Assembly: GCA_049997795.1 (NCBI GenBank)
Contig: JBEKVT010000001.1
Coordinates: 101,067 to 165,066 of the forward strand
DNA: 64,000 bases
Source: Minisyncoccia bacterium
GTDB taxonomy: Bacteria; Patescibacteriota; Minisyncoccia; Phycocordibacterales; PALSA-1337
Direction: 5' to 3'
Shown piece by piece: positions 19,559 through 52,163 of the stretch. Each line of letters opens with the position of its first letter. Within the stretch, counting starts at the first letter, position 1. The notes beneath the pieces are model-generated. The model ran no database searches. It saw only the letters and a list, made by a program, of their open reading frames with translations, and had not been told where the DNA came from. The translations under genes were made by a program, and so were the position numbers.

Positions 19559-19924
19559 TGGTGGAGATGGCGGGAATCGAACCCGCGTGCAATCGAAGCG
19601 AACCGGACGGTTCTACGGCGGTAGTCAGGTTTGATGTCTGACGGCCGTGCTCGAAACGAGACAAAACACATGGCCGCGATCTCTTTGATTCGGATGGCGG
19701 AGTGAGAAGCTCCGCCGCCCTACATCCAGGTTATGACATCGCACTACGGTAAGGATCCCCGTAGATAGACGCGCTCTACTTAAGCGAGAGCGAATGCAAA
19801 GTCCTTCGCTCCGAAATACGGAGAAACGGTTGATTTGGCACTTCAGATTTGGAACGGATTTGCGAGTCATTCCGGCTCGCGCCGCCCGAACGGACGCCGG
19901 CGATTGTCTATGCCGATCATCCCC
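19559..19924 (-). ncRNA. ssrA: tmRNA (ssrA), ~366 nt
   Basis: The 5' end GGGGAUGAUCGGCAUAGAC resembles the tmRNA 5' consensus. The 3' end is tRNA-Ala-like, GGUUCGAUUCCCGCCAUCUCCACCA. The internal tag frame ...GCG AAG GAC UUU GCA UUC GCU CUC GCU UAA gives (A)KDFAFALA*. The ORF-track hits inside this region are spurious. Confidence 0.85.
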
Positions 19925-36153: not shown

Positions 36154-36504
36154 TTATTTCTTCGTGTCGGCGGCTAGGGCGGCGGCTTTGGCGGCCTGAG
36201 CAGAAGCGATCTCGGCCTCCTTGGCCTTGATCTCGAGCTCTTTCTGCATCTTGCCGCCGTGGCGGACGAACTTCTTAGTGGGCGAAAATTCACCGAGGCG
36301 GTGTCCTACCATGTCCTCGGTGACGAATACTTCTATATGCTGTTTGCCGTTGTGGACGCCGAAAGTGAAGCCGATCATCTCCGGCGAGATCTGGGAGCGG
36401 CGGGCCCAAGTATTCACCACGCCCAAAGAGGCCGGCTTCTTGCCGGAGATCTTTTTGATGATCGATTCATCGACGTAAGGGCCTTTTTTTAGCGAGCGGG
36501 ACAT
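36154..36504 (-). CDS. rpsS: 30S ribosomal protein S19 with an Ala/Lys-rich C-terminal extension
   Basis: [18 protein letters not shown]... matches S19. Confidence 0.85.
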
Positions 36505-36585
36505 TGAGGCTTGTAGAAAGAAAATCAGCTCCGAGGAGCTTCCCCGCATAGTAGCAGAGCCGTATTTTTAAGTCAATATGATATA

Positions 36586-37386
36586 ATGAGCGGCATCATT
36601 ATGAACGTCTATCTCGTGGCCGCCGTGGTCGTCATCGCCTTGACCGGGGCCGCCATGGCGGCCATTCTGGCCGTCTTGTGGCGCAAGCTCCGTGAGGACG
36701 AGAGCATGAAGCGCGAGTTCGCCTCCATCATCGCCCACAAGTTCCGCACTCCCCTGACCCACATCAAATGGTCGGCCGACAACCTGATCATGAGCGAGAC
36801 GGATCCGTACAGCAAGCGCAGTCTCGCCGACATCAAGGAATCCAACGAGAAGCTCATCAAGCTGACCGGCACGCTCCTCGAGCTTACCGATTCGGACGAC
36901 GCCGCGGTCTCGTCGTACAAATTCGAGCGCCTCGACATCTGTTCCCTGGCCCGGACCGCCGTCGAGGCTTCGAGGAAGGCTCTCCACGAGAAGAACCTGT
37001 TCCTGTCGATCAATTGCGCGGAACCGGAGATATTCGTCAGAGCGGACCGTTCGCGGATGGAGTTCGTCCTAGCCGCTCTCCTCGACAATGCCTGCCTCTA
37101 CAGCCCGCCCGGACGCGACGTCTCTGTGGCCGTGTCGGCAGAAGGCAGCGATGCCGCCATATCGGTCACCGACAACGGCATCGGCATGGCTCCGGCCGAC
37201 ATTTCAAGGGTCTTCACCAAGTTCTTCCGGTCCAAAGAGGCTAAGGCGGCCGACAGCGAGGGGTTCGGCGTCAGCTTGTATCTGGCTCAGAGCGTCGCGA
37301 GGCGCCACGGCGGTAAGATCCGGGCCGAGTCCGAAGGATCGGGCAAGGGCTCGACCTTCAGCGTCGTCCTGCCGAGAGTGAATTGA
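36586..37386 (+). CDS. Sensor histidine kinase (HisKA + HATPase_c), no adjacent response regulator
   Basis: H-box SIIAHKFRTPL, G1 DNGIGM, G2 GFGVSLYLA, and an N-terminal TM helix. Confidence 0.75.
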   Translation: MSGIIMNVYLVAAVVVIALTGAAMAAILAVLWRKLREDESMKREFASIIAHKFRTPLTHIKWSADNLIMSETDPYSKRSLADIKESNEKLIKLTGTLLELTDSDDAAVSSYKFERLDICSLARTAVEASRKALHEKNLFLSINCAEPEIFVRADRSRMEFVLAALLDNACLYSPPGRDVSVAVSAEGSDAAISVTDNGIGMAPADISRVFTKFFRSKEAKAADSEGFGVSLYLAQSVARRHGGKIRAESEGSGKGSTFSVVLPRVN

Positions 37387-37417: not shown

Positions 37418-37852
37418 TCACTTCCTGCCGCGCCGGCGCTTGTAGAAATTCTTCGATTCGCGGGTGATAGCCAGGATGCCGATCACGCCGATATAAGAGG
37501 CGCTGACTTCGGCCGGCAGATGGTATGACGGATTGTAGAAGGTGTCCCCGACGATGAGGGCAAGCACCAGGATCGTCCAGAGGATGGCATAGAGCTCGCC
37601 GGGATGCATGGAGCTGTGCATGTGGTGCCAGCGTCGGAATTCCTTCTCGGCGCTGTATATGGCGAGAAGAGCCGTGTAGATAGCGGCGATGGCCAGGAGA
37701 ACCTCGGCTTTCGAAAGGATATTGTCTTGGTAGAAATCGTAGGCGATGGCCGCGAAGAAGATCGCCGTCCAGAAATTGACCATGTGGCGCCAGAGCTTGA
37801 ACGAACCGGCCTTTTGAAGATCGAAGTGTTTCATGTTTGAGACCTGTATCAC
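37418..37852 (-). CDS. Hypothetical membrane protein
   Basis: 144 aa with four TM helices, directly upstream of the ABC permease gene. Confidence 0.4.
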   Translation of the reverse strand: MIQVSNMKHFDLQKAGSFKLWRHMVNFWTAIFFAAIAYDFYQDNILSKAEVLLAIAAIYTALLAIYSAEKEFRRWHHMHSSMHPGELYAILWTILVLALIVGDTFYNPSYHLPAEVSASYIGVIGILAITRESKNFYKRRRGRK

Positions 37853-39095: not shown

Positions 39096-39821
39096 TTATT
39101 TTATGAATTCGTCCTCCGACGTCAGGCGGTCTTTGACCTTGACGTCGCTCTCGATCTCCCCGTCCATGAGCTTCATGATGCGTTCGGCATGGTCGGCCGT
39201 GGTAGCCTCGTGGGTGATGAGGACGATGGTCTTGCCGTGCTCCTCGTTCAGGTGCTGGATGATCGACATGACGTTCTTGCCGGCCTTGGAGTCGAGATTG
39301 CCCGTCGGCTCGTCGGCGAAGATGATCTCCGGATCGTTGACCAGGGCCCTGGCTATGGCCACGCGCTGTTTCTCTCCGCCGGAGAGCTCCGCCTGCTTGT
39401 GATGCATGCGCTGGCCGAGGCCGACGTCTTCGACCGCCTTCCTGGCGCGCTTCTCCCACTCATGCTCCGGCACGCTCGAGTAATAGAGGGGCAGTTTGAC
39501 GTTTTCCAGGACGGTGGTGCGCGGCAGGAGGTTGAAGGCCTGGAAGACGAAGCCGAGCTTCTCGTTCCGGATCTTGGCCAATTCGTTGCCAGAGTAAGAT
39601 GATACGTCTTTGCCGTCGAAGTGATAGACGCCGGAAGTCGGCTCGTCGAGGAGACCCAGAAGGTGGAGTAGGGTCGATTTGCCTGATCCTGACGGACCCA
39701 TGATAGCCAGGAACTCCCCTTTCCTGACGTTGAAAGTCACGCCGTTCAGGGCCACCGTGGCGGTGGCTCCGCCGTCGTGATAGACCTTCTTCAAGTCCTT
39801 GACTTCGATGATGTTAGCCAT
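39096..39821 (-). CDS. ABC transporter ATP-binding protein (MacB/LolD-like)
   Basis: Walker A GPSGSGKST, signature LSGGEKQR and Walker B IIFADEPT. Confidence 0.85.
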   Translation of the reverse strand: MANIIEVKDLKKVYHDGGATATVALNGVTFNVRKGEFLAIMGPSGSGKSTLLHLLGLLDEPTSGVYHFDGKDVSSYSGNELAKIRNEKLGFVFQAFNLLPRTTVLENVKLPLYYSSVPEHEWEKRARKAVEDVGLGQRMHHKQAELSGGEKQRVAIARALVNDPEIIFADEPTGNLDSKAGKNVMSIIQHLNEEHGKTIVLITHEATTADHAERIMKLMDGEIESDVKVKDRLTSEDEFIK

Positions 39822-41296
39822 TACTTCACGTACGTCACTACCTTGTCGCCGACAGAGAGGCCGGAAACGATCTCGATAGTGCCGTAAGAGCCCTTGAGGC
39901 CTGTCACGACGGGCACGGGAGCGTAAGTCTTGCCGTCGGGACTGACAAGGCGCACGGTCTTCGAGCCACTGGTGTCGGTGACGGCCCGATAAGGGATCTC
40001 TAAGACGCCGTCGCGCTCGTGGGTCAGGATCTCGAGATTGGCCGTCATGCCGGAACGGATGCGGCTATCCGGATTCACGAATACCAGAGTGACTTTGTAG
40101 GTCGGTACGCCTTCGAGGACGGTCTCGGCCGGATCGATCATGATGACCTTGGCCGGAAAATCCGTGTCTGAGCCGTAAGCGTCGAGAGTGCTCGACGCCA
40201 GATCGCCGACGGAGACTTTGGCGATATCGGCTTCAGGCACGTAAGCCTCTACCTTGAAATCATTGTTCTGCACCGCGAAGCCGGACTGGCCTGGCGCCGC
40301 GTATTCGCCGACATCCGGGTCGGCCCTGGTGACGACGCCGTCGATCGGCGAGACGAGGGTGTCTTGGTCGAGAAGGGCTTGGGCTTGGGCGACTTTAGCG
40401 GCCAGGGCGGCGATCGATTGGGAGGAATTGCCGGCGAGCTTCAGGTCATAATTGGATTGAGCGGTGGAAAGGCCGGTTTGCGCCGCCGTCACGGAGTCGG
40501 TGGCGGTATTCAGAACGGAAAGCCCGGAATTCATGGTCGCTACGACGGCATTGATCTGGACTTGAGTCATGCTCGAGTTCCCGGGATTCAGCGCATTAAC
40601 GACGACCGAAAGGTCGGTCATGAAGCTCTTCACGGTCGAGAGATACCCGCTTGAGCGCGAGATGAGGCTTGCCGGGTCGAGGGCAGCGCTCAAGAGGTCG
40701 GCTGACCATTGGTTGAGGATCCCTGTGATGTTCAGGCGCTCTTGGTTCAAGGCGGTCTGGATGGGAACGGTGTCGGTGCGGATATAGAGGGTCGGGTTGG
40801 AACTCTGGGGGTTGGAGAAGAAGGCATCGGTGTAATTGAACAGGGCGTTCTGGGCCTTGACGAGGCCGTCATGAGCGGCGTTCAGGGCGTCTTTCTTGGC
40901 GTTGTCGAGCGAGGTCTTCTGGACGGCCAGCTCTTCGGGCGTCAGGCCGCGCGACAGGTCGGCCAAACTAGCTTCGGCGCTTGAGAGGGCCGCCCGATCG
41001 TTGCCGCTGTCGAGCGAAGCTATAAGGTCTCCCCTCTTCACGGCATCGCCAACCTTGACATAGATCCTGGAGATGACTCCGCCCTTCTCGAAAGCCAAGT
41101 CGGCCTTGGCGATCGGCGAGATCGTGCCGGTTACGCTCACCGTTTCTATGACGTTGCCTATTTGGGCCGCGGCCGTCTCGAATATCGGGACAGAACTACC
41201 GCTTCGCGCCCAGACGATGAGGATGACTATGATGATGACGGCGAGCCCGGCGATGACCCACTTATTTTTTAAATACTGCCAATAAGATTTTTTCAT
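39821..41296 (-). CDS. Efflux periplasmic adaptor subunit (HlyD/MacA family)
   Basis: An N-terminal TM helix, a long coiled coil, and beta-barrel/MP domains (SPIDGVVTRADPDVGEY...). Confidence 0.7.
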   Translation of the reverse strand: MKKSYWQYLKNKWVIAGLAVIIIVILIVWARSGSSVPIFETAAAQIGNVIETVSVTGTISPIAKADLAFEKGGVISRIYVKVGDAVKRGDLIASLDSGNDRAALSSAEASLADLSRGLTPEELAVQKTSLDNAKKDALNAAHDGLVKAQNALFNYTDAFFSNPQSSNPTLYIRTDTVPIQTALNQERLNITGILNQWSADLLSAALDPASLISRSSGYLSTVKSFMTDLSVVVNALNPGNSSMTQVQINAVVATMNSGLSVLNTATDSVTAAQTGLSTAQSNYDLKLAGNSSQSIAALAAKVAQAQALLDQDTLVSPIDGVVTRADPDVGEYAAPGQSGFAVQNNDFKVEAYVPEADIAKVSVGDLASSTLDAYGSDTDFPAKVIMIDPAETVLEGVPTYKVTLVFVNPDSRIRSGMTANLEILTHERDGVLEIPYRAVTDTSGSKTVRLVSPDGKTYAPVPVVTGLKGSYGTIEIVSGLSVGDKVVTYVK

Positions 41297-42360
41297 GCGG
41301 TATATTGTAGCATATCGTCCTTGCGCTGTTTAATGAGACTCTCCAGCTTCTTGGCGTTGCCGTGGCTGATCAGGCCGAGGTATGACTGCACAGTCTCCGC
41401 CTTTCCTTGTTTTTGCCGGATGCCTCGGAACATGCGCTTTTTCGTCGCCGTCCGTAGCACTCGATGATCCGGGAAAGTGACCCAACCGAGATAATCGACG
41501 CCAGACGCAATAGTTTTAATTGAGATTTTTCTCGGGTGAAGTTGAAGTTTCAACTTGCTCGATAAAAACTCTTTGATCGGGGGTAAAAGCCCGATGAGCC
41601 ATTCCTTATCGCGGGAAATGATAATGAAATCGTCGGCATAGCGGATATAGTATTTCGCCTTTAATTTGTGCTTCACGAACTGGTCGAACTCGTTCATATA
41701 GACATTCACGAGAAGCTGTGAGGTCAGGTTGCCGAGAGGCAGGCCGATGCCCTTTTTTACTGATGAAAAGCTTTTGATGACCTTTGATAGAAGGCCAACC
41801 GTATTTTTGTCAGGAATACGTTCGTCGAGGATGCCTATTAAAACCTCCTGGTCTATCGACGCGAAGAACTTCCTGATATCGCATTTCAGGACCCAGACGG
41901 TCTTCGTATGATTCTGCGAGGCCTTGTAGGCGAATGACCGGAATCTGTCCATGGCCTTGTGCGTTCCCTTGCCCAGACGGCATGAGAATGAATCAGATAT
42001 GAACCTCCTGTCGAAGAACGGATAAAGTTTCCTGTGCAGTGCATGATGCAACAGCCTGTCTCTCACCTCGGCCTTGTGGATATCGCGGCGCTTGGGATCA
42101 TAGATCCGGAAAAATTCATAAGGCGAGTGCTCGTAAGTTTTGGACGCCAGATCGTTGTGGAGCGAGATGATATTGCCCATCAAATCCCGCTCGAATTCTT
42201 GGACATCCTTGCGTTTTCGTTTCCCTTTTACAAATTCCTTCCAGGCCTCAAGAAGATTTTCGAGAGAAATGATATCATCATAGGCATGAACAAATTGGAT
42301 CCGTCGCAGACCCGTAAAGCCCCCCCCCCACGCAATTTTGCCGGTTTTGAATAAGATCAA
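41293..42360 (-). CDS. Diversity-generating retroelement reverse transcriptase (Brt-like)
   Basis: DGR-specific motif GLPLGNLTSQLLVNVYM (a SQ motif instead of the group II QG) and YADDFIII. The N-terminus ENLLEAWKEFVKGKRKRK and other blocks align with Bordetella phage Brt. An adjacent TR/VR pair is present. Confidence 0.85.
   Translation of the reverse strand: MILFKTGKIAWGGGFTGLRRIQFVHAYDDIISLENLLEAWKEFVKGKRKRKDVQEFERDLMGNIISLHNDLASKTYEHSPYEFFRIYDPKRRDIHKAEVRDRLLHHALHRKLYPFFDRRFISDSFSCRLGKGTHKAMDRFRSFAYKASQNHTKTVWVLKCDIRKFFASIDQEVLIGILDERIPDKNTVGLLSKVIKSFSSVKKGIGLPLGNLTSQLLVNVYMNEFDQFVKHKLKAKYYIRYADDFIIISRDKEWLIGLLPPIKEFLSSKLKLQLHPRKISIKTIASGVDYLGWVTFPDHRVLRTATKKRMFRGIRQKQGKAETVQSYLGLISHGNAKKLESLIKQRKDDMLQYTA
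42320..42329. repeat. Homopolymeric C10 (G10 on the minus strand) tract
   Basis: Read directly from the sequence. It lies in the 5' coding region of the RT (codons W-G-G-G) and just upstream of the avd start. Confidence 0.8.
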
Positions 42361-42688
42361 AGATGCTTATCTGCTTTGGCATGGTTATCACCAGGAATTA
42401 CCGAAAATCCACAGGTATTCGCTAGGATCTCGCATTGACTCGTTATTTATAGAGATCATCGAGGCCGTCGCGGCGGCAAGCTTCTTGTCTCGCGAAGAAA
42501 AACACCCTTACGTGCGCCTGGCGATCAGAAAATCGGATGCGCTCAAGATACTTCTGATGGTCCTCTGGGAAACGAAATCGCTCGACGACAAGAAGTATAT
42601 CGCATTGTCGGTGAAATTGGACGAGGTTGGCAGAAACCTCGGCGGCTGGAGCGGCCAGCTCATGAAACAAAACTCCCCCAACAAATAG
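42338..42688 (+). CDS. avd: Avd-like accessory variability determinant (four-helix-bundle family), encoded divergently from the RT
   Basis: LPKIHRYSLGSRIDSLFIEIIEA and the C-terminal VGRNLGGWSGQLMKQ resemble Avd/four-helix-bundle proteins (compare bAvd ...VGRILGSWIARVNRK). The start is TTG at 42338 or 42347. Confidence 0.65.
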   Translation: MPVLNKIKDAYLLWHGYHQELPKIHRYSLGSRIDSLFIEIIEAVAAASFLSREEKHPYVRLAIRKSDALKILLMVLWETKSLDDKKYIALSVKLDEVGRNLGGWSGQLMKQNSPNK

Positions 42689-42712
42689 TAGGGGGAGAAA
42701 TGAAGAGAGTTA

Positions 42713-42834
42713 CGGACACCGCCGCCGGATTGTCACTGTTCCAGTCGTTGTCGAGCCTGTTGTAGTTCCAGTTCCACCTGTCGTCGTCCCAGTAGAGGTA
42801 ACGGACGTTGAGGTCGCCGTCAGCGTTGCGGTAT
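42713..42834 (-). repeat. DGR template repeat (TR), 122 nt core
   Basis: Hand alignment to the VR gives 122 nt without indels and 24 mismatches, 23 of them at TR adenines on the minus (sense) strand. The TR carries AAC/TAC/GAC codons where the VR has CTC/TTC/GGC and so on. The track ORF 42660..42860 is this repeat, not a gene. Confidence 0.8.
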
Positions 42835-43081
42835 CGTACGAAGTGCCCTCCGTGCCACAACCCCTCGAATGCTCTCGGGGTTGAATCGTATTCGGCATAT
42901 TTAATGCCCTAGCACCTCGTACCAAGTATTTTCATTTTTTAATGAAGTTCTGCATACACCACCCTACCCAAAACCTTGGTCGTGGATATTCTCGATGTAC
43001 GGATACTAGTTTCGGTAGCAAGCAACCTTGGTCGCTCACGTATTCACCTACTCCCGCCCCATCTTACCATACAGAAATCAG

Positions 43082-43109
43082 CCCTGTGCGTTGTCGCACA
43101 GGGCTGAGG
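43082..43109 (-). other. GC-rich hairpin ~55 nt downstream of the VR (cagccctgtgcg-ttgt-cgcacagggctg)
   Basis: Perfect 12-bp stem. Its position is analogous to the hairpin/cruciform 3' of the VR in the Bordetella phage DGR. Confidence 0.5.
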
Positions 43110-43155: not shown

Positions 43156-43779
43156 CTAACTTGCGGACACCGCCGCCGGATGGCCACTGAGCCAGAAGGA
43201 GTCGAGCCAGAAGAAGAGCCAGAGCCACCTGTCGTCGTCCCAGAAGAGGAAACGGACGAAGAGGCCGCCGCCAGCGCGGCGGTATATCGTGCCCCAGAAG
43301 AAGATGTAGCGGGTGTTGCCCTCTTCATCCTTTTTCCACTCCTCAGGGATGAGGTGCGGATTCTTCAGAAGGTAGTCGAGCACGTTGGCGTCCAGGACAG
43401 GCATCTTAGCGAGCTCCTTGCGGAGGTCGTTACCAACGATGGAACTGCCCTTCCTCTGCTTCTTCGACAAGTAGAACTCGATCTTCTTGCCGTCGACGTA
43501 GAGGTCGGGACCTTTCCGTTCGAGCTTGACGATACCGCCCTTGTGGTGCTCCTCGACCGTCCAGTTGTAGCCGGAGGGGATGACCGCATCGACACCGCAG
43601 TCGATGGCGTGTTCAACGGGCTTGATTTCGGCAAGACCTCGTTGGACATCCCTCACGCGGCCGAGGAAATCCCCGACTGTGAGAGCTTTTACTTCTTCCA
43701 GCGACTGGAAGCCGTTGCGGTTGAGTGCATGCTCGATTTCTTGAGCCAAACCAACACCGAGGATTAACTTGTCATTCAT
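43156..43779 (-). CDS. DGR variable (target) protein: N-terminal helix-hairpin-helix domain (ComEA-like), C-terminal variable region; no signal peptide
   Basis: 207 aa. LILGVGLAQEIEHALNRNGFQSLEEVKALTVGDFLGRV resembles an HhH motif. The VR occupies the last ~45 codons (...YRRAGGGLFVRFLFWDDDRWLWLFFWLDSFWLSGHPAAVSAS*). Confidence 0.75.
   Translation of the reverse strand: MNDKLILGVGLAQEIEHALNRNGFQSLEEVKALTVGDFLGRVRDVQRGLAEIKPVEHAIDCGVDAVIPSGYNWTVEEHHKGGIVKLERKGPDLYVDGKKIEFYLSKKQRKGSSIVGNDLRKELAKMPVLDANVLDYLLKNPHLIPEEWKKDEEGNTRYIFFWGTIYRRAGGGLFVRFLFWDDDRWLWLFFWLDSFWLSGHPAAVSAS
43164..43285 (-). repeat. DGR variable repeat (VR) at the 3' end of the target gene
   Basis: Cognate of the TR. The 17-nt 3' end is identical and GC-rich (IMH-like ccggcggcggtgtccg), after which the flanks diverge. 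Confidence 0.8.
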
Positions 43780-43943
43780 GACGTGTTTTTCTCCATAATG
43801 GACATGTTCGTTTAGAACTAGTCTGGTACTGTTGGGCTCCTCGTGTTGAGGTTTGCCACAGCGCTCAAGGACCTGAAGGGATTCAAGTCCCTAAACGCTG
43901 CGGCAAATGCAAGTTAGTCTTTCAAAGACCTTATTACCTTGCT

Positions 43944-43973
43944 ATTATACACCAAATGTGACTTGTATGTCAA
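43944..43973 (-). promoter_or_regulatory. Consensus sigma70 promoter TTGACA-18-TATAAT directed toward the DGR target gene
   Basis: Read on the minus strand. It is followed by a long imperfect hairpin (43853-43906) in the ~155-nt leader, then GGAG and ATG at 43779. Confidence 0.5.
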
Positions 43974-44032: not shown

Positions 44033-44887
44033 TCAGCTTCCGCTCCTCATCAGTCGGCCGGGATTGCGGCGCGAGACGATGAAGACATTAGAATACTTCT
44101 TGGGAGTGCGGGTCTTCTGGCCCTTGCCCGCGGGCTTGCCCCAGCGGGTCTTCAGGCGGCGCAGGCCGCGGCCTTGGCGCTGTTCGCCGCCGCCGTAAGG
44201 ATGGTCGACCGGGTTCTGGGCGGTGCCGCGCACCGTGGGACGTATCCCCATCCAGCGCGAGCGGCCGGCCTTGCCGATGACCACCAGGCGATTCTCCTCG
44301 TTGGAAACGGCGCCGATCGAAGCCCAGGAATTCTGGTGGACTTTGCGGACCTCGGTCGAAGGCATCTTGATGTGGGTGTAGCCGGCGTCATTGGCGATGA
44401 CTTGGGCGAAAGAACCGGCCGAGCGGACAAGTTTGGCGCCGGAGCCGGGATTGATTTCGATGTTGTAGACGTATGTGCCGACCGGGATGTTCTTCAAAGG
44501 CAGGCGATTGCCTGTCTCGATCGGGGCTTTTTCGGAAACGATGAATGTGTTGCCGACTTTCATGGTCTTCGGCAGGAGGACGTAGCGCTTGGCGCCATCC
44601 CTGTAGGCGACCAGGCCGATGTAGCCGGTGCGGAAGGGATCGTACTCGACGGTCTTCACTGTGGCCGGGATGTCTTTCTTGTCATACAGGAAATCGACGA
44701 GGCGATAGAGCTTCTTGTGGCCGGCGCCCTTGTGGCGGACGGTGATGCGGCCGAAAGCGTTCCTGCCGACGTCGCGCTTGAAACCTGTTGTGAGCGGCTT
44801 GTACGGCTCGGACGCCGTCAAGTATTCCTTGAACGGCAAGGTTGTCATGTGGCGGCGCGATTTGGTTGTGGGTCGGTATGTCTTCAT
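44033..44887 (-). CDS. rplB: 50S ribosomal protein L2
   Basis: 284 aa with the GRNxxGxITxRHxGGGHK pattern. Confidence 0.9.
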   Translation of the reverse strand: MKTYRPTTKSRRHMTTLPFKEYLTASEPYKPLTTGFKRDVGRNAFGRITVRHKGAGHKKLYRLVDFLYDKKDIPATVKTVEYDPFRTGYIGLVAYRDGAKRYVLLPKTMKVGNTFIVSEKAPIETGNRLPLKNIPVGTYVYNIEINPGSGAKLVRSAGSFAQVIANDAGYTHIKMPSTEVRKVHQNSWASIGAVSNEENRLVVIGKAGRSRWMGIRPTVRGTAQNPVDHPYGGGEQRQGRGLRRLKTRWGKPAGKGQKTRTPKKYSNVFIVSRRNPGRLMRSGS

Positions 44888-47302: not shown

Positions 47303-48490
47303 TTAGGCGATTACTTTGGTGACCACGCCCGAGCCGACGGTCTTGCCGCCCTCGCGGACGGCAAAGCGTATCTGGGCTTCGAGAGCGACGGGTGCGACGA
47401 GCTTCACCTTGAAGCTGGCGGTGTCGCCGGGCATGACCATCTCCACCTTTTCCGGCAGAGTGACCTCGCCGGTCACATCGGTGGTACGGATGTAGAACTG
47501 CGGCTTGTAGCCGGTGAAGAACGGGGTGTGGCGTCCGCCCTCTTCCTTCTTCAGGATATAGACTTCAGCCTCGAATTCGGTGTGGGGCTTGACGGAGCCG
47601 GGTTTGGCCAGGACCTGGCCGCGGGAGACGTCATCCTTGGCAGTGCCGCGCAGGAGGATACCGGCGTTGTCGCCGCAAATGCCTTCTTTCAGGGACTTAT
47701 TGAACATCTCGATGCCTGTCACGACTGTCTTCACCGTATCCCTGAAGCCGACTATCTCGACTTCGTCGCTGATCTTGACCTTGCCGCGCTCGATCCTGCC
47801 GGTCACGACGGTGCCACGGCCTTCGATCGAGAAGATGTCTTCTATCGGCATGAGGAACGGCTTATCGACGTCGCGGACCGGTTCCGGGATGAAGGTATCG
47901 ATGGCATCCATGAGCTCGTCGATCTTCCCCGTCCAGACCGGATCGCCTTCGAGGGCCTTCAGGGCCGAACCGCGGATGACCGGGGCGTTCTTGCCGTCGA
48001 ATTCGTACTTGGTGAGGAGCTCGCGCACCTCTTCCTCGACCAGATCGATCAAGTCCTTCTCCTCCACCATGTCGCACTTGTTGAGGAAGACCAGGACCTT
48101 CGGCACGCCGACCTGGCGGGCCAGAAGGATGTGCTCCCTGGTCTGGGGCATGACGCCGTCCTGGGCGGACACGACCAGGATGGCTCCGTCCATCTGGGCG
48201 GCGCCGGTGATCATATTCTTGACGAAGTCGGCGTGGCCGGGACAGTCGATGTGGGCGTAGTGGCGCTTCGGCGTCTCGTACTCGACGTGCGAGAGCGAGA
48301 TGGTGACGGTCTTGGTGGCGTCACGGACGGTGCCGCCTTTGGTGATGTCGGCGTAAGCCTTGAGCTTGGCCATGCCCTTCTTGGCCTGGACGGCCAGGAT
48401 GGCGGCGGTCAAGGTGGACTTGCCGTGGTCGATGTGACCGATCGTGCCGACGTTCACGTGCGGCTTATTGCGATTGAATTCAGCTGCCAT
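47303..48490 (-). CDS. tuf: Elongation factor Tu
   Basis: [16 protein letters not shown] and NKCD GTPase motifs; 395 aa. Confidence 0.95.
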
Positions 48491-48645: not shown

Positions 48646-49860
48646 CTAGACCCCGTCCTCTGATTTCCTGTTTAAGAATTCAGGGACAAAACCATTTTCT
48701 TCCAGAGCTCTTACTACATCCCTGAGAAGATAATTGTTACGGAACTGAATTGTATATTTTCTGCTTTTATTGCCCTTGGTCGGCACGAGCATCTCTTTAT
48801 CCTTTAACCGTTTAATTATGCGCGACCTTTGAACAGGCGAAGCCTCGTTCAATGCAGCTTTTATGTCTAAGGATTTAATCGTCATATCCTTAGTCTTAAC
48901 AACACAGCTCAAAACAGCATGCTCCTGATTATTTATACTCTTACGTTCAAGAGAATATCGGAGCGCGGGTATGAGAATGGTATCGGTGATATATTCCAAG
49001 TTAAGCAATTTATCAATTTTTTCTATCTCTTTACGTAAACCGTTTAGAACATATTCGCACCATTCAAGAACTTTGACTTCATCGCCAGTATCGGCAACCG
49101 CAAGCATTTCATAGTATTTCGCTCGATCCATACAAAAAATAGCAGTGGGGTTCAATATACGCCCTGTCTTAACCTGGAATCCTTGTTTGATTAACAGGGC
49201 GTATGTGAACATTCGGACAAATCTACCGTTGCCGTTATCAAATGGATGTATCCAAGCCATTCGGTGATGGGCAAGCGCAGTAATAAGCAGATGATACTTG
49301 GAACTGACAGAGGCATTAACAAATGTCATAAGTTCTTCAAAATATTCAGGCACCTTAATGCTCTTTGGTGGGACATGCGGCGACCCTGTAATCGATACAT
49401 CCACTGGTCTCAAGGCGCCAGGATAGTGAGAACCCTCTCCCCCTGGGGGAGGTGTGAGATCTTTTACAATAATCCTGTGTATTTCGGAAATCAGGGCGCG
49501 GTCAAAGATAGTTGTCTTCTTTATATTTTTCTCAATAAAATCAATGACATCTTCCAAATTAAAAATCTCTTTCATGCTTTCGTCCGCAGTAGCTCTGGAA
49601 GGATTTTCTATTACCTTTTCGACAAATTCCATCAGGGTCGTTCTATTCCCCTCAATGCGAGCAGATCCGAGGCTCTCAAATAATTGAAAAATCTCCTTCA
49701 ATTGGAAAAATACATGTGGTGGAACTGGGCCTCCAAGCCTTTTAACCCTTAATTTCTCTAGCTCTATGATAGTAGTCGCTAAATCAGAGCTCCATTTTGG
49801 ATCATAGAGCTTGAGTTCTGTGTGTTTAAATTGTTTAGTATTTTCCTTATCCATAATCAT
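48646..49860 (-). CDS. Fic/Doc (Fido) family protein, class II (N-terminal inhibitory S-x-x-x-E-G motif), C-terminal winged-helix domain
   Basis: The Fic active-site motif HPFDNGNGRFVR and the N-terminal SARIEGN inhibitory-helix motif. The coding GC content (~40%) is much lower than in the flanking genes. Confidence 0.8.
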   Translation of the reverse strand: MIMDKENTKQFKHTELKLYDPKWSSDLATTIIELEKLRVKRLGGPVPPHVFFQLKEIFQLFESLGSARIEGNRTTLMEFVEKVIENPSRATADESMKEIFNLEDVIDFIEKNIKKTTIFDRALISEIHRIIVKDLTPPPGGEGSHYPGALRPVDVSITGSPHVPPKSIKVPEYFEELMTFVNASVSSKYHLLITALAHHRMAWIHPFDNGNGRFVRMFTYALLIKQGFQVKTGRILNPTAIFCMDRAKYYEMLAVADTGDEVKVLEWCEYVLNGLRKEIEKIDKLLNLEYITDTILIPALRYSLERKSINNQEHAVLSCVVKTKDMTIKSLDIKAALNEASPVQRSRIIKRLKDKEMLVPTKGNKSRKYTIQFRNNYLLRDVVRALEENGFVPEFLNRKSEDGV

Positions 49861-50018: not shown

Positions 50019-52163
50019 TTATTTCCTCTTCTCCTTTATCTCCTCGGCCACATTGGCCGGCACGACCTCGTAGTGATCGAATTCGAGCATGGCGCTCCCT
50101 TGGCCAGAGGTCATTGAGCGCAACTGGGTGGTGTAGCCGAACATCTCGGAGAGCGGCACTTTGGCGATGATGGAGACGGCCTGGCCCTTCGGGTTCTGGC
50201 CTTCAATCATGCCGCGCTTCGAGGCGATACTGCCGTTCACGTCGCCGATGTACTTTTCAGGGCAGACGACTTCAAGCTTCATGATGGGCTCCAGGATGAC
50301 CGGCTTGGCGCGCTTGGCGGCGTCCTGGAAGGCTTGGGAGGCGGCGATCTTGTAGGCGATCTCCGAGGAGTCGACGTCATGGTACGAGCCGAAGGTCAGT
50401 TCGCAGGAGATGTTGACCATCTTGTAGCCGGCCACGATGCCGCGGTCCATGGCTTCGTGGACGCCTTTCTCGACGGCTGGGATGAATTCCTGCGGGATGA
50501 CGCCACCCTTGATAGAGTTGATGAATTCGAAATCATCGTAGCGCTTGACGTTCTTCGGGACCTTCTCGCCTTCGACGAGTGGTTTCATCGGACGCAAGGT
50601 GATGCGGACGTGGCCGTACTGGCCCTTGCCGCCCGTCTGTTTGATGTACTTGTTCTCGGCCTCGGCTGTACCGAGGATGGACTCGTGATAAGCCACCTGC
50701 GGCTCGCCGACGTTGGCCTCCACGCCGAATTCGCGCTTCATGCGGTCAACCATGATCTCGAGGTGGAGCTCGCCCATACCGGAGATGATGGTCTCGCCGG
50801 TCTCCTGGTTGGAAGTGATCTTGAAGGTCGGGTCTTCATTAGCCAATTTGTGGAGAGCGATGCCCATCTTCTCCTGGTCGGCCTTGGTCTTCGGCTCGAT
50901 CCGGAGAGAGACGACCGGCTCCATGAATTTGATGACTTCGAGGACGATCGGGTGCTCCTCGTCGCAGAAAGTGTGCGAAGTCAGGGCGTCTTTCAAGCCC
51001 ACGGCCGCGGCGATCTCGCCGGCGAAGACTTTCTTGACCTCTTCGCGCTTATCGGCCTGCAAACGGACGATGCGGCCCAGGCGCTCTTTCTTGCCGGTCG
51101 TCGAATTGTAGAGATAAGTGCCGGCTTCGATGGTGCCGGAATAGACGCGGAAGAAGGTCAGTTGGCCGACGAACGGGTCGTTCTGGAGCTTGAAGGCCAG
51201 AGCGGAGAATGGTTCGCTGTCGGAAGCGTGGCGGACGATCTCTTCGCCGGTATTCGGGTCGATGCCCTTGATAGGCGGCATGTCGAGAGGCGACGGCAGG
51301 TAGTCCACGACGCCGTCCAAGACCAGTTGCACGCCGATATTCTTCAGAGCGGAACCGGTGAAGACCGGGAACATCTTGTTCTCGATCACGGCCTTCCTGG
51401 TGATCTTCTTCAATTCCTCCACGGGAACTTCGTGGCCCTCCAGATATTTGTGCATGGCCGCGTCGTCGTGCTCGACGATCTTCTCGACGAGCTCGGCGCG
51501 ATATTTCTTGGCCTCTTCCAGAAGATCGGCCGGGATCTCCTTCTCGACGACCTTCTCTCCTTTGTCGCCCTCGAACGTATAGGCCTTCATCTTCAAAAGA
51601 TCGATGACACCGGAATGGTTCTCTTCGAGACCGATGGGGATCTGGAACCGGACAGCGTTCTTATTCAAGCGTTCCAGAATAGACTTAAATGATTTCTCGA
51701 AAGATGCGCCCATCCGGTCCATTTTGTTGATGAAGCAGAGGCGCGGCACTTTGCCGTCGTCGGCATAGCGCCAGTTGGTCTCCGATTGAGGCTCCACGCC
51801 GGCCACGCCGTCGAAGACGACGACCGCACCATCAAGGACGCGCAACGAACGTTTGACCTCGACCGTGAAATCGATGTGCCCCGGGGTGTCGATGATATTG
51901 AAACGGACCTTTTTCGACAGGTCGGCCGCCGGCATATACGTTGGGTTCCAGAAACAGGTGATGGCCGCGGCCGTGATGGTGATGCCGCGCTCCCTTTCCT
52001 GCTCCATCCAGTCGGTCACGGTGTCGCCCTCGTGGACCTCGCCAATCTTGTGGGTCATGCCTGTGTAATACAAGATACGCTCCGACGTGGTCGTCTTGCC
52101 GGCGTCGATGTGGGCGATGATGCCGAAGTTCCTTACTCGTTCAAGCGGGTAGTCGCGTTGCAT
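50019..52163 (-). CDS. fusA: Elongation factor G
   Basis: 714 aa with the G-domain motifs [14 protein letters not shown] and NKMD. Confidence 0.95.

Follow-up and report, generated by a model that had tools for sequence, protein, structure and literature searches.

A diversity-generating retroelement with a small, probably cytoplasmic target protein in a ribosomal-protein operon of a Minisyncoccia bacterium

A stretch of 64,000 nucleotides from a Minisyncoccia bacterium of the Patescibacteriota (contig JBEKVT010000001.1, positions 101,067 to 165,066; hereafter the window) carries a diversity-generating retroelement (DGR) whose target gene, at 43156..43779, encodes a protein of 207 amino acids. 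An earlier interpretation made from the letters alone (the sequence-only reading) had described this target as a small, apparently cytoplasmic protein with a ComEA-type helix-hairpin-helix (HhH) motif at its N-terminus. The cassette consists of the target gene, a template repeat (TR), an avd accessory gene and a reverse transcriptase (RT) gene. The variable region (VR) occupies the 3' end of the target gene, and both repeats have GC-rich ends that resemble initiation of mutagenic homing (IMH and IMH*) sites.

The cassette and its repeats

43156..43779 (-): DGR target gene, 207 amino acids, 23.7 kDa (open reading frame (ORF) translation and homologue search)
43164..43285 (-): VR, in which 16 codons within residues 168-200 differ from the TR
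43164..43179 (-): IMH-like GC-rich 3' end of the VR, CCGGCGGCGGTGTCCG (TR/VR alignment)
43078..43107 (-): GC-rich hairpin (13 bp, 4-nt loop), 51 nt past the target stop codon
42713..42834 (-): TR (repeat alignment), with an IMH*-like end at 42713..42728
42338..42688 (+): avd accessory gene, lying between TR and RT in the orientation opposite to that of target, TR and RT
42320..42329 (-): poly-G tract (G10 in RT orientation), located within the 5' end of the RT ORF, 8 nt upstream of the divergent avd start
41293..42360 (-): DGR RT, a 355-amino-acid ORF from a TTG, start uncertain

The TR and VR form a 122-nt direct repeat spaced 451 nt, and the VR spans codons 166-206 of the 207 in the target. 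Of the 32 TR adenines, 23 have another base in the VR (T at 13 positions, C at 6 and G at 4), compared with a change at 1 of the 90 other bases. The TR encodes the peptide NWNYNRLDNDWNSDN, and the current VR encodes LWLFFWLDSFWLSGH; both had been quoted correctly in the sequence-only reading, which had also recognized that an aromatic-rich C-terminal segment is rewritten. The non-adenine change that it pointed out is real, with G42746 of the TR appearing as T in the VR and codon 195 changing from GAC to TTC. Such a change is ordinary within the family, since 17 of 36 related cassettes show at least one non-adenine TR/VR mismatch; across these 36, 606 of the 650 mismatches fall on TR adenines. 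At residue 191, the TR codon (42759..42761) is AGG (Arg), where the window VR has TGG. This codon is TGG in 32 of 37 related TRs, and Trp191 is nearly invariant in the family.

At their 3' ends, the two repeats have a common 16-nt GC-rich segment and then diverge, continuing as CAAGTTAG in the VR and as TAACTCTC in the TR. These diverging ends match the IMH/IMH* arrangement and are IMH-like by sequence. Relatives, among them ones with no RT next to them, keep the 3' end of the VR (..GCAAGTT..) at the level of nucleotides. The hairpin at 43078..43107 resembles a terminator and is also a candidate target-recognition hairpin of the DGR; many relatives have a comparable hairpin 46-65 nt past the stop codon.

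The RT matches RVT_1 (4e-23) and the PHROG 1423 RT (1e-105), and its translation contains the LGNLTSQ and YADD motifs. At approximately 42297..42299 (in ggtCTGcgacgg), a CTG is found where related RTs start with ATG (e.g., ATG CGA CGG ATT CAA TTT at the related locus L004). The sole in-frame canonical start is a TTG located 31 nt upstream of the poly-G tract, so that translation must read through the tract. The avd gene matches NCBIfam DivGenRetAVD (NF033474; 7e-15 over residues 1-104), PHROG Avd (1e-13) and Pfam bAvd (1.5e-8), with all three scores below the curated cut-offs. The layout of target, TR, inverted avd and RT is found in approximately 30 related loci, and some related cassettes (L016, L027) contain two targets. 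At the level of sequence, the locus is a complete DGR (target, TR, inverted avd and RT) with every defining feature, which confirms the earlier identification of the small 207-residue ORF as a DGR target.

The ATG of the target gene is the first possible start downstream of an in-frame stop, and GGAG lies 11 nt 5' of it. None of the 38 codons from that stop to the ATG is an ATG, GTG or TTG, and the stretch is not hydrophobic, which excludes a longer form with a signal peptide, a possibility raised in the sequence-only reading. Three further candidate signals flank the target gene and the TR:

43944..43973 (-): sigma-70-like promoter TTGACA-18-TATAAT, 12/12 consensus, 5' of the target (pattern match alone)
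43852..43907 (-): 26-bp hairpin, presumed 5' leader of the target (folding computation)
42675..42694 (-): small hairpin with a T-rich tail, directly 3' of the TR and overlapping the end of avd on the opposite strand (pattern match alone)

The presumed leader, which contains the 26-bp hairpin and lies 3' of the 12/12 promoter, has a minimum free energy of -61.3 kcal/mol (z = -6.3), and an Rfam search gave no family for the hairpin.

The target family and its predicted architecture

The target protein has no Pfam, NCBIfam or PHROG match. At least 883 homologues are present in a 90%-clustered database, all of approximately 190-250 amino acids and without a Pfam match; they are named as hypothetical proteins only and come from Minisyncoccia, Paceibacterota, Vogel-, Lipton- and Nomurabacteria. 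With a profile of the C-terminal 112 amino acids, 3,411 family representatives were obtained at 50% identity (E<=1e-3), and the family is contained in 362 of 185,579 species genomes, almost all of them Patescibacteria. Judged from these homologues, the target belongs to a large Patescibacteria family and is a new member among candidate phyla radiation (CPR) DGR targets without an export signal. Within the literature library searched, no published description of this IDCDADP...FFWGT target family was found. A weak match to ScsC_N (33 of 78 members, best 3e-4) spans a short 'YLLxNPxLI' helix only and was rejected as a motif match.

Two parts can be distinguished in the protein:

43639..43779 (-): N-terminal three-helix accessory domain, residues 1-47 (AlphaFold2 helices 9-21, 27-32 and 38-46)
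43159..43617 (-): core module of approximately 150 amino acids, residues 55-207, 'IDCDADP...LNANVLDYL...FFWGT...PAA' (tandem repeats and AlphaFold2)

Using a 78-sequence alignment, AlphaFold2 modelled the full-length target with a pLDDT of 94.8 and a pTM of 0.84, and residues 96-207 modelled alone gave a pLDDT of 95.1. In the full model, the three N-terminal helices are followed by a small beta unit (57-103) and then by a beta-alpha-alpha-beta-beta-beta-beta order; for the predicted isolated domain (residues 96-207), DSSP assigned E5-8, H21-28, H36-44, E64-72, E78-86, E89-96 and E107-110. The accessory domain, of approximately 47 residues, varies more than any other part of the family outside the VR (mean entropy 1.89 bits), and four homologues on IMG/VR contigs lack it or have another segment in its place. 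In family members P0124, P0125, P0134 and P0142, a unit of approximately 150 amino acids ('IDCDADP' to 'PAA..AS') is repeated in tandem two to four times, which points to residues ~55-207 as the evolutionary module. Tandem modules are also carried by P0127, and one IMG/VR contig (L096:427-2006) has three copies within 2 kb.

Within the family, entropy reaches 2.40 bits at the 23 adenine-containing VR codons, compared with 0.41 bits at the remaining VR positions. Strands 173-181 and 184-191 show an alternation of variable positions with invariant Trp, Leu, Val and Arg, and we infer that the VR forms a hairpin of which one face is hypervariable and the other belongs to the core, with a variable loop (193-200) after it. 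The predicted order of secondary-structure elements would fit a minimal C-type lectin (CLec) fold with the variable positions on the last hairpin and loop. A Foldseek search of the full model against PDB and BFVD gave nothing below E=0.48. For the isolated C-terminal domain, the six best PDB matches are all C-type lectin domains (MCL, BDCA2, EMS16), but these are non-significant (E 0.57-1.2, probability <=0.18, TM score 0.3-0.4), and the top 50 matches contain no known DGR variable protein. When the target was tested for a CLec fold against Mtd, TvpA, AvpA, TaqVP and FGE, no significant structural similarity was obtained, and the FGE-sulfatase, DUF1566 and Lectin_C Pfam models matched none of the 78 members at E<=10. 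Because CLec membership reaches no significance, the scaffold is regarded as probably CLec-like, though unproven. Roux et al. (2021) expect unannotated CPR VR domains to be new CLec variants (PMC8144416).

With respect to localization, the maximum Kyte-Doolittle hydropathy of the target (19-amino-acid window) is 0.97, and its acidic N-terminus has 5 acidic and 2 basic residues among the first 30. No prepilin-like or lipobox sequence was found in the target by eye, its N-terminus is modelled as a packed three-helix bundle, and none of 120 relatives has a transmembrane or signal-like stretch that reaches a Kyte-Doolittle value of 1.6. Based on hydropathy, N-terminal charge and the model, it is well supported, but not proven, that the target has no Sec-type export signal and is probably cytoplasmic. 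In agreement with the sequence-only reading, no signal peptide or transmembrane segment is apparent; the contrast that it drew with surface proteins is not a novel one, as the literature on such targets indicates (PMC8144416, PMC10907252).

Recent activity and the poly-G tract

Scanning of a metagenome collection with the TR carrying N at each adenine led to contig Ga0116116_1028467 (locus L098). This contig is identical to the window for 92 nt on the upstream side of the VR and for 1,670 nt on its downstream side, save one extra G in the poly-G tract, and has the same TR, whereas its VR differs from the window VR at 25 positions. Relative to the TR, the second VR shows 17 adenine-site changes, mostly to G, together with one non-adenine change (T to G, Trp187 to Gly), and it keeps G at the window's G-to-T site (TR G42746). 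Two VR alleles within otherwise identical DNA imply recent mutagenic retrohoming, and the differing alleles with the same TR and flanks are direct evidence that the element has recently been active. Given that each allele has one non-adenine change and the flank of approximately 1.76 kb has none, these changes are best explained as by-products of the homing event rather than as later drift.

Variation is similarly confined in other family members: in six other 90%-identity clusters, variable columns are found almost only past the FWGT motif (e.g., 16/43 vs 0/156 and 20/43 vs 0/160). A further allele of the target itself differs by G170D only, at an adenine-templated site. The exact window protein is present on at least 23 contigs from many samples, the VR and TR are nucleotide-identical across eight compared assemblies, and the TR is the same in 11 other assemblies of the organism and in L098. 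Since the L098 allele retains Arg at residue 191 and carries Trp187Gly, some homing products may be structurally compromised. The two alleles also differ in character. The window VR arose mainly by A to T/C changes and has a Leu/Phe/Trp-rich surface (the fourth most hydrophobic of 120), whereas the changes in the L098 VR are almost entirely A to G and give a Gly/Asp/Arg-rich surface.

The G10 tract at the avd/RT junction is the only G/C homopolymer of at least 7 in the window. Among nine assemblies of the organism, its length is G9, G10 or G11, for which assembly length error is possible, and the tract is where three contigs end. Runs of 6-14 G occupy the same place in 28 of 31 related cassettes of other species, whose RTs are only 50-70% identical, and most G/C runs of at least 8 in 1.13 Mb of related loci are this junction tract. 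A TAnnnT hexamer directly follows the run in 16 of the 28 (background 1.4%), and in 12 of them the distance from the run to the RT start codon is exactly 13 nt. As a hypothesis, the pattern in relatives would fit a -10 box, a leaderless or near-leaderless RT mRNA and a tract serving as promoter spacer. At the window junction, the -10-like hexamer and the RT ATG are both missing, and the tract lies inside the only open RT frame; lengths G9, G10 and G11 each leave an in-frame GTG or TTG for the RT, with G9 and G11 bringing other TTG/GTG codons into frame. For the RT, the tract could be a promoter spacer or leader controlled by slippage. In the literature library searched, no paper linking DGRs to such a G tract was found.

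Homopolymeric G/C tracts are found in phase-variable promoters and ORFs, such as Bordetella fim and the contingency loci of Neisseria and Campylobacter (cf. PMC1891110, PMC4965091). The DGR tract resembles these as a G/C homopolymer of 8-14 nt whose length is polymorphic within one species (G9/G10/G11); in 16 of 28 relatives, TAnnnT adjoins it and the RT start is 7 nt beyond the hexamer. It differs in that the window lacks both the -10-like hexamer and the ATG. A conserved, polymorphic poly-G suggests a testable layer of control over DGR activity.

Genomic context, competing explanations and related systems

The cassette belongs to an insert of approximately 7.5 kb, consisting of the DGR, a HlyD/ABC/MacB set and an opposite-strand kinase core, that splits a ribosomal-protein operon between rplB and rpsS. 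The insert and its edges comprise the following genes, of which the HlyD/ABC/MacB set and the kinase were correctly named in the sequence-only reading:

44033..44887: rplB (L2), one edge of the insert
39821..41296, co-oriented with the RT: HlyD-like protein (family search)
39096..39821, co-oriented with the RT: ABC ATPase (family search)
37849.., co-oriented with the RT: MacB/FtsX protein (family search)
36586..37386 (+): histidine-kinase core HisKA+HATPase_c, 266 amino acids (family search)
36154..36549: rpsS (S19), the other edge of the insert

Two minus-strand ORFs in this region (36568..36987 and 37418..37852) gave no family matches, the former being a probable shadow ORF of the histidine kinase gene on the plus strand. 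A family member lies inside a ribosomal-protein operon in two cases among 81 loci, which is near chance expectation; at L013 (Nomurabacteria), a member without an RT is located between rplE (L5) and rpsH (S8). Analysis of conserved neighbours across 80 species loci recovered RT and Avd only, while aminoacyl-tRNA synthetase and ABC clusters were generic. The adjacency of transporter genes to the cassette is not regarded as functional, because it is found in approximately 5 of the 81 loci.

In about half of the 66 species loci with enough flank, no RT, Avd or TR is found within 10 kb (L006, L007, L009, L011, L013 and about 30 others). These loci retain the IMH-like nucleotide 3' end and often a GC hairpin approximately 50-60 nt past the stop, and may for this reason be targets served from a distance or else recently orphaned. 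In 8-10 related cassettes, the neighbour is a large serine recombinase (Resolvase, Recombinase and Zn ribbon) (L024, L026, L027, L029, L031, L055, L058 and L059; e.g., L029:8384-9709), which suggests that the cassettes are mobile and carried on integrative elements.

The explanation preferred here, with moderate confidence, is that the target is a soluble hypervariable binding module, probably CLec-like, that is diversified in cis by an active DGR. In line with established knowledge of DGRs, TR RNA would be reverse-transcribed by the RT with Avd as a cofactor, random bases would go in opposite template adenines, and the cDNA would then replace the VR at the 3' end of the target gene, with the direction set by the IMH-like GC-rich end and possibly also by the downstream hairpin. 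Up to 23 adenine-templated codons (residues 166-200) would vary in this way on the last beta-hairpin and loops, at alternate strand positions, while the invariant Trp, Leu and Arg appear to build the core, so that a rigid scaffold, probably C-type-lectin-like, would present a single hypervariable face for binding. Because no Sec, Tat, lipoprotein or membrane signal is seen, the target most likely acts inside the cell as a variable ligand-binding module, and its N-terminal helical domain is probably an adaptor rather than an HhH nucleic-acid binder. Possible roles include the recognition of phage or host-derived molecules, or regulation.

Several observations weigh against this explanation. The window VR allele is the same in at least eight assemblies (at least 23 contigs), with no consensus-level diversification within those samples. 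Both the Arg codon (AGG) of the TR at the family-invariant Trp and the CTG of the RT in place of the start ATG of relatives could mean reduced activity. No conserved partner gene stands beside the family, and the context consequently offers no clue to function. Export signals were judged from hydropathy, charge and the model, and non-classical export of the target is still conceivable. A more far-reaching proposal would join the results into a single scheme, in which the IDCDADP...FFWGT module of approximately 150 amino acids is an undescribed minimal hypervariable scaffold (a new CLec subclass or a new fold), intracellular in thousands of Patescibacteria lineages, and its DGR is gated phase-variably by the slippage-prone poly-G in the RT promoter or leader; as a whole, this scheme is rather doubtful.

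The least unlikely of the rival explanations holds that the target is exported non-classically and displayed or released to bind host-cell surfaces, possibly by way of the adjacent HlyD/ABC/MacB genes. A role in aiding symbiosis has been proposed for AvpA-like small DGR targets (PMC5006420). The genes are co-oriented, with a 4-nt overlap between the stop of the RT and the start of the HlyD-like gene, an HlyD/ABC/MacB set also lies approximately 4.5 kb from the cassette in the closest other species, and HlyD homologues occur in 4-5 of the 81 loci. Binding to host surfaces is, moreover, the usual idea for episymbiotic CPR bacteria. Against export stand the poor conservation of the transporter adjacency, the lack of a signal peptide, lipobox or transmembrane segment in any of the 120 relatives, and the placement of homologues on phage-like contigs among replication and early genes rather than tail genes. 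MacB-type pumps, in addition, handle periplasmic substrates and not cytoplasmic proteins. That the element is instead a decaying relic, with the repeat pair left from past activity and a target no longer diversified, appears improbable. The uniform VR, the CTG start and the AGG codon had suggested a dead element, yet this idea was overturned by the second VR allele, which lies in otherwise identical DNA (no substitution across approximately 1.76 kb of flank); the RT ORF is also intact with its catalytic motifs, and the TR is the same in all assemblies.

A ComEA-like HhH at the N-terminus, as put forward in the sequence-only reading, would mean that the DGR diversifies a DNA- or RNA-associated protein. 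In a phmmer search with the first 55 residues, amino acids 8-53 resembled the C-terminal domain of Thermus RNA polymerase alpha (1DOQ; an HhH-containing fold), and the family motif 'A-F-x-R-x-G-W/F-T/S-x-x-D/E-I/V-K' weakly recalls the helix-turn-helix repeats of BurrH (TALE-like). Neither likeness is significant: the former (E=0.24) disappeared with a 40-sequence family profile of the domain, which matched BurrH repeats instead, each at E>=70. Both are treated here as local helix-turn-helix motif resemblance. No HhH Pfam model matched any of the 78 family members, even at E<=10, and HhH proteins are absent from the matches of the family profile to all PDB sequences and from the Foldseek matches of the model. 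The GVG of the motif (G8-V9-G10) precedes helix 1 (9-21) in the model, with coil alone before G8 rather than a second helix, and G8 is replaced by D, T or S in most relatives; the domain is also dispensable in viral-contig homologues. The HhH interpretation is not supported and must be considered very improbable. Least probable of all is that the target derives from a phage as a receptor-binding (tail) protein and is carried by a prophage or integrative element, by analogy with the prototype DGR of Bordetella phage. The serine recombinases beside 8-10 related cassettes, the RT match to a phage RT PHROG (1e-105) and the core module on four IMG/VR contigs are in its favour. However, no match was found in 50,697 phage genomes, and four of 2.9 million IMG/VR contigs compare with 362 species genomes. 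The target, which has no PHROG match, sits in a ribosomal-protein operon with no structural phage genes around it and lacks the trimerization and tail-attachment domains of Mtd.

DGRs of CPR/Patescibacteria lineages were reportedly treated by Paul et al. in Nat Microbiol in 2017. CPR DGR targets typically have no transmembrane or other recognizable domains (Roux et al. 2021, PMC8144416), and ribosomal-protein genes have been found near five CPR DGRs (Wu et al. 2018, PMC5758913). The present element resembles the CPR DGRs (clade 2 of Roux et al. and the CPR set of Wu et al.) in its phylum, its compact cassette with avd adjoining TR and RT, its C-terminal VR, its nearby ribosomal-protein genes and its target without transmembrane segment, signal peptide or known domain. 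There is no categorical difference, though the target here has no ATPase; by these features, the locus looks typical of the CPR DGR lineage, for which targets without export signals have already been stated. It is a candidate for the B3 architecture of Wu et al., its Patescibacteria host and its layout being shared by approximately 30 related cassettes. With the BPP-1 DGR (mtd-avd-TR-brt), it shares adenine-specific TR-to-VR transfer, a VR at the target 3' end, a GC-rich IMH-like end, a downstream GC hairpin, Avd and an RT with the [I/L]GxxxSQ motif. Unlike that system, it is chromosomal rather than phage-borne, with avd inverted between TR and RT, a poly-G at the avd/RT junction and a monomer-sized 207-residue target without trimeric tail-fibre domains.

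Two further systems invite comparison. AvpA of Nanoarchaeota, whose CLec fold is not predictable from sequence and whose function is unknown (PMC5006420, PMC6328139), is likewise a small single-polypeptide DGR target of a nanosized organism with a C-terminal VR. It shares no sequence similarity with the window target (profiles against all PDB sequences, no match at E<=10) and is outside the top 50 Foldseek matches, and the window VR is longer than the 23 amino acids of AvpA. Cytoplasmic DGR targets have been described in multicellular bacteria, where these 'antigen sensors' are predicted to be cytoplasmic and have a C-terminal hypervariable ligand-binding domain, as is likely here (PMC10907252). 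They carry STAND NTPase or other signalling domains in conflict-system operons, whereas the window target has a helical domain of 47 amino acids only and no conserved neighbour.

Whether CPR targets that lack export signals are genuinely non-membrane proteins or simply unrecognized membrane proteins was not settled by Roux et al. (2021; PMC8144416). An N-terminus predicted as a folded helical bundle, and not as a signal peptide, favours soluble, probably intracellular hypervariable binders for a large family in organisms with approximately 1,000 genes. As the family is abundant, small (~200 amino acids) and confidently modelled, with natural VR alleles, it may provide a practical entry point to recognition by CPR DGRs.

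Two other features of the window were noted apart from the DGR. A full-length tmRNA at 19559..19924 (-) was detected by Rfam (101.8 bits) and was not reported by ARAGORN. A Fic-domain protein of 404 amino acids (48646..49860, minus strand; HPFDNGNGR motif; Pfam Fic 1e-13) is encoded by a gene inserted between fusA (EF-G, 50019..52163) and tuf (EF-Tu, 47303..48490).

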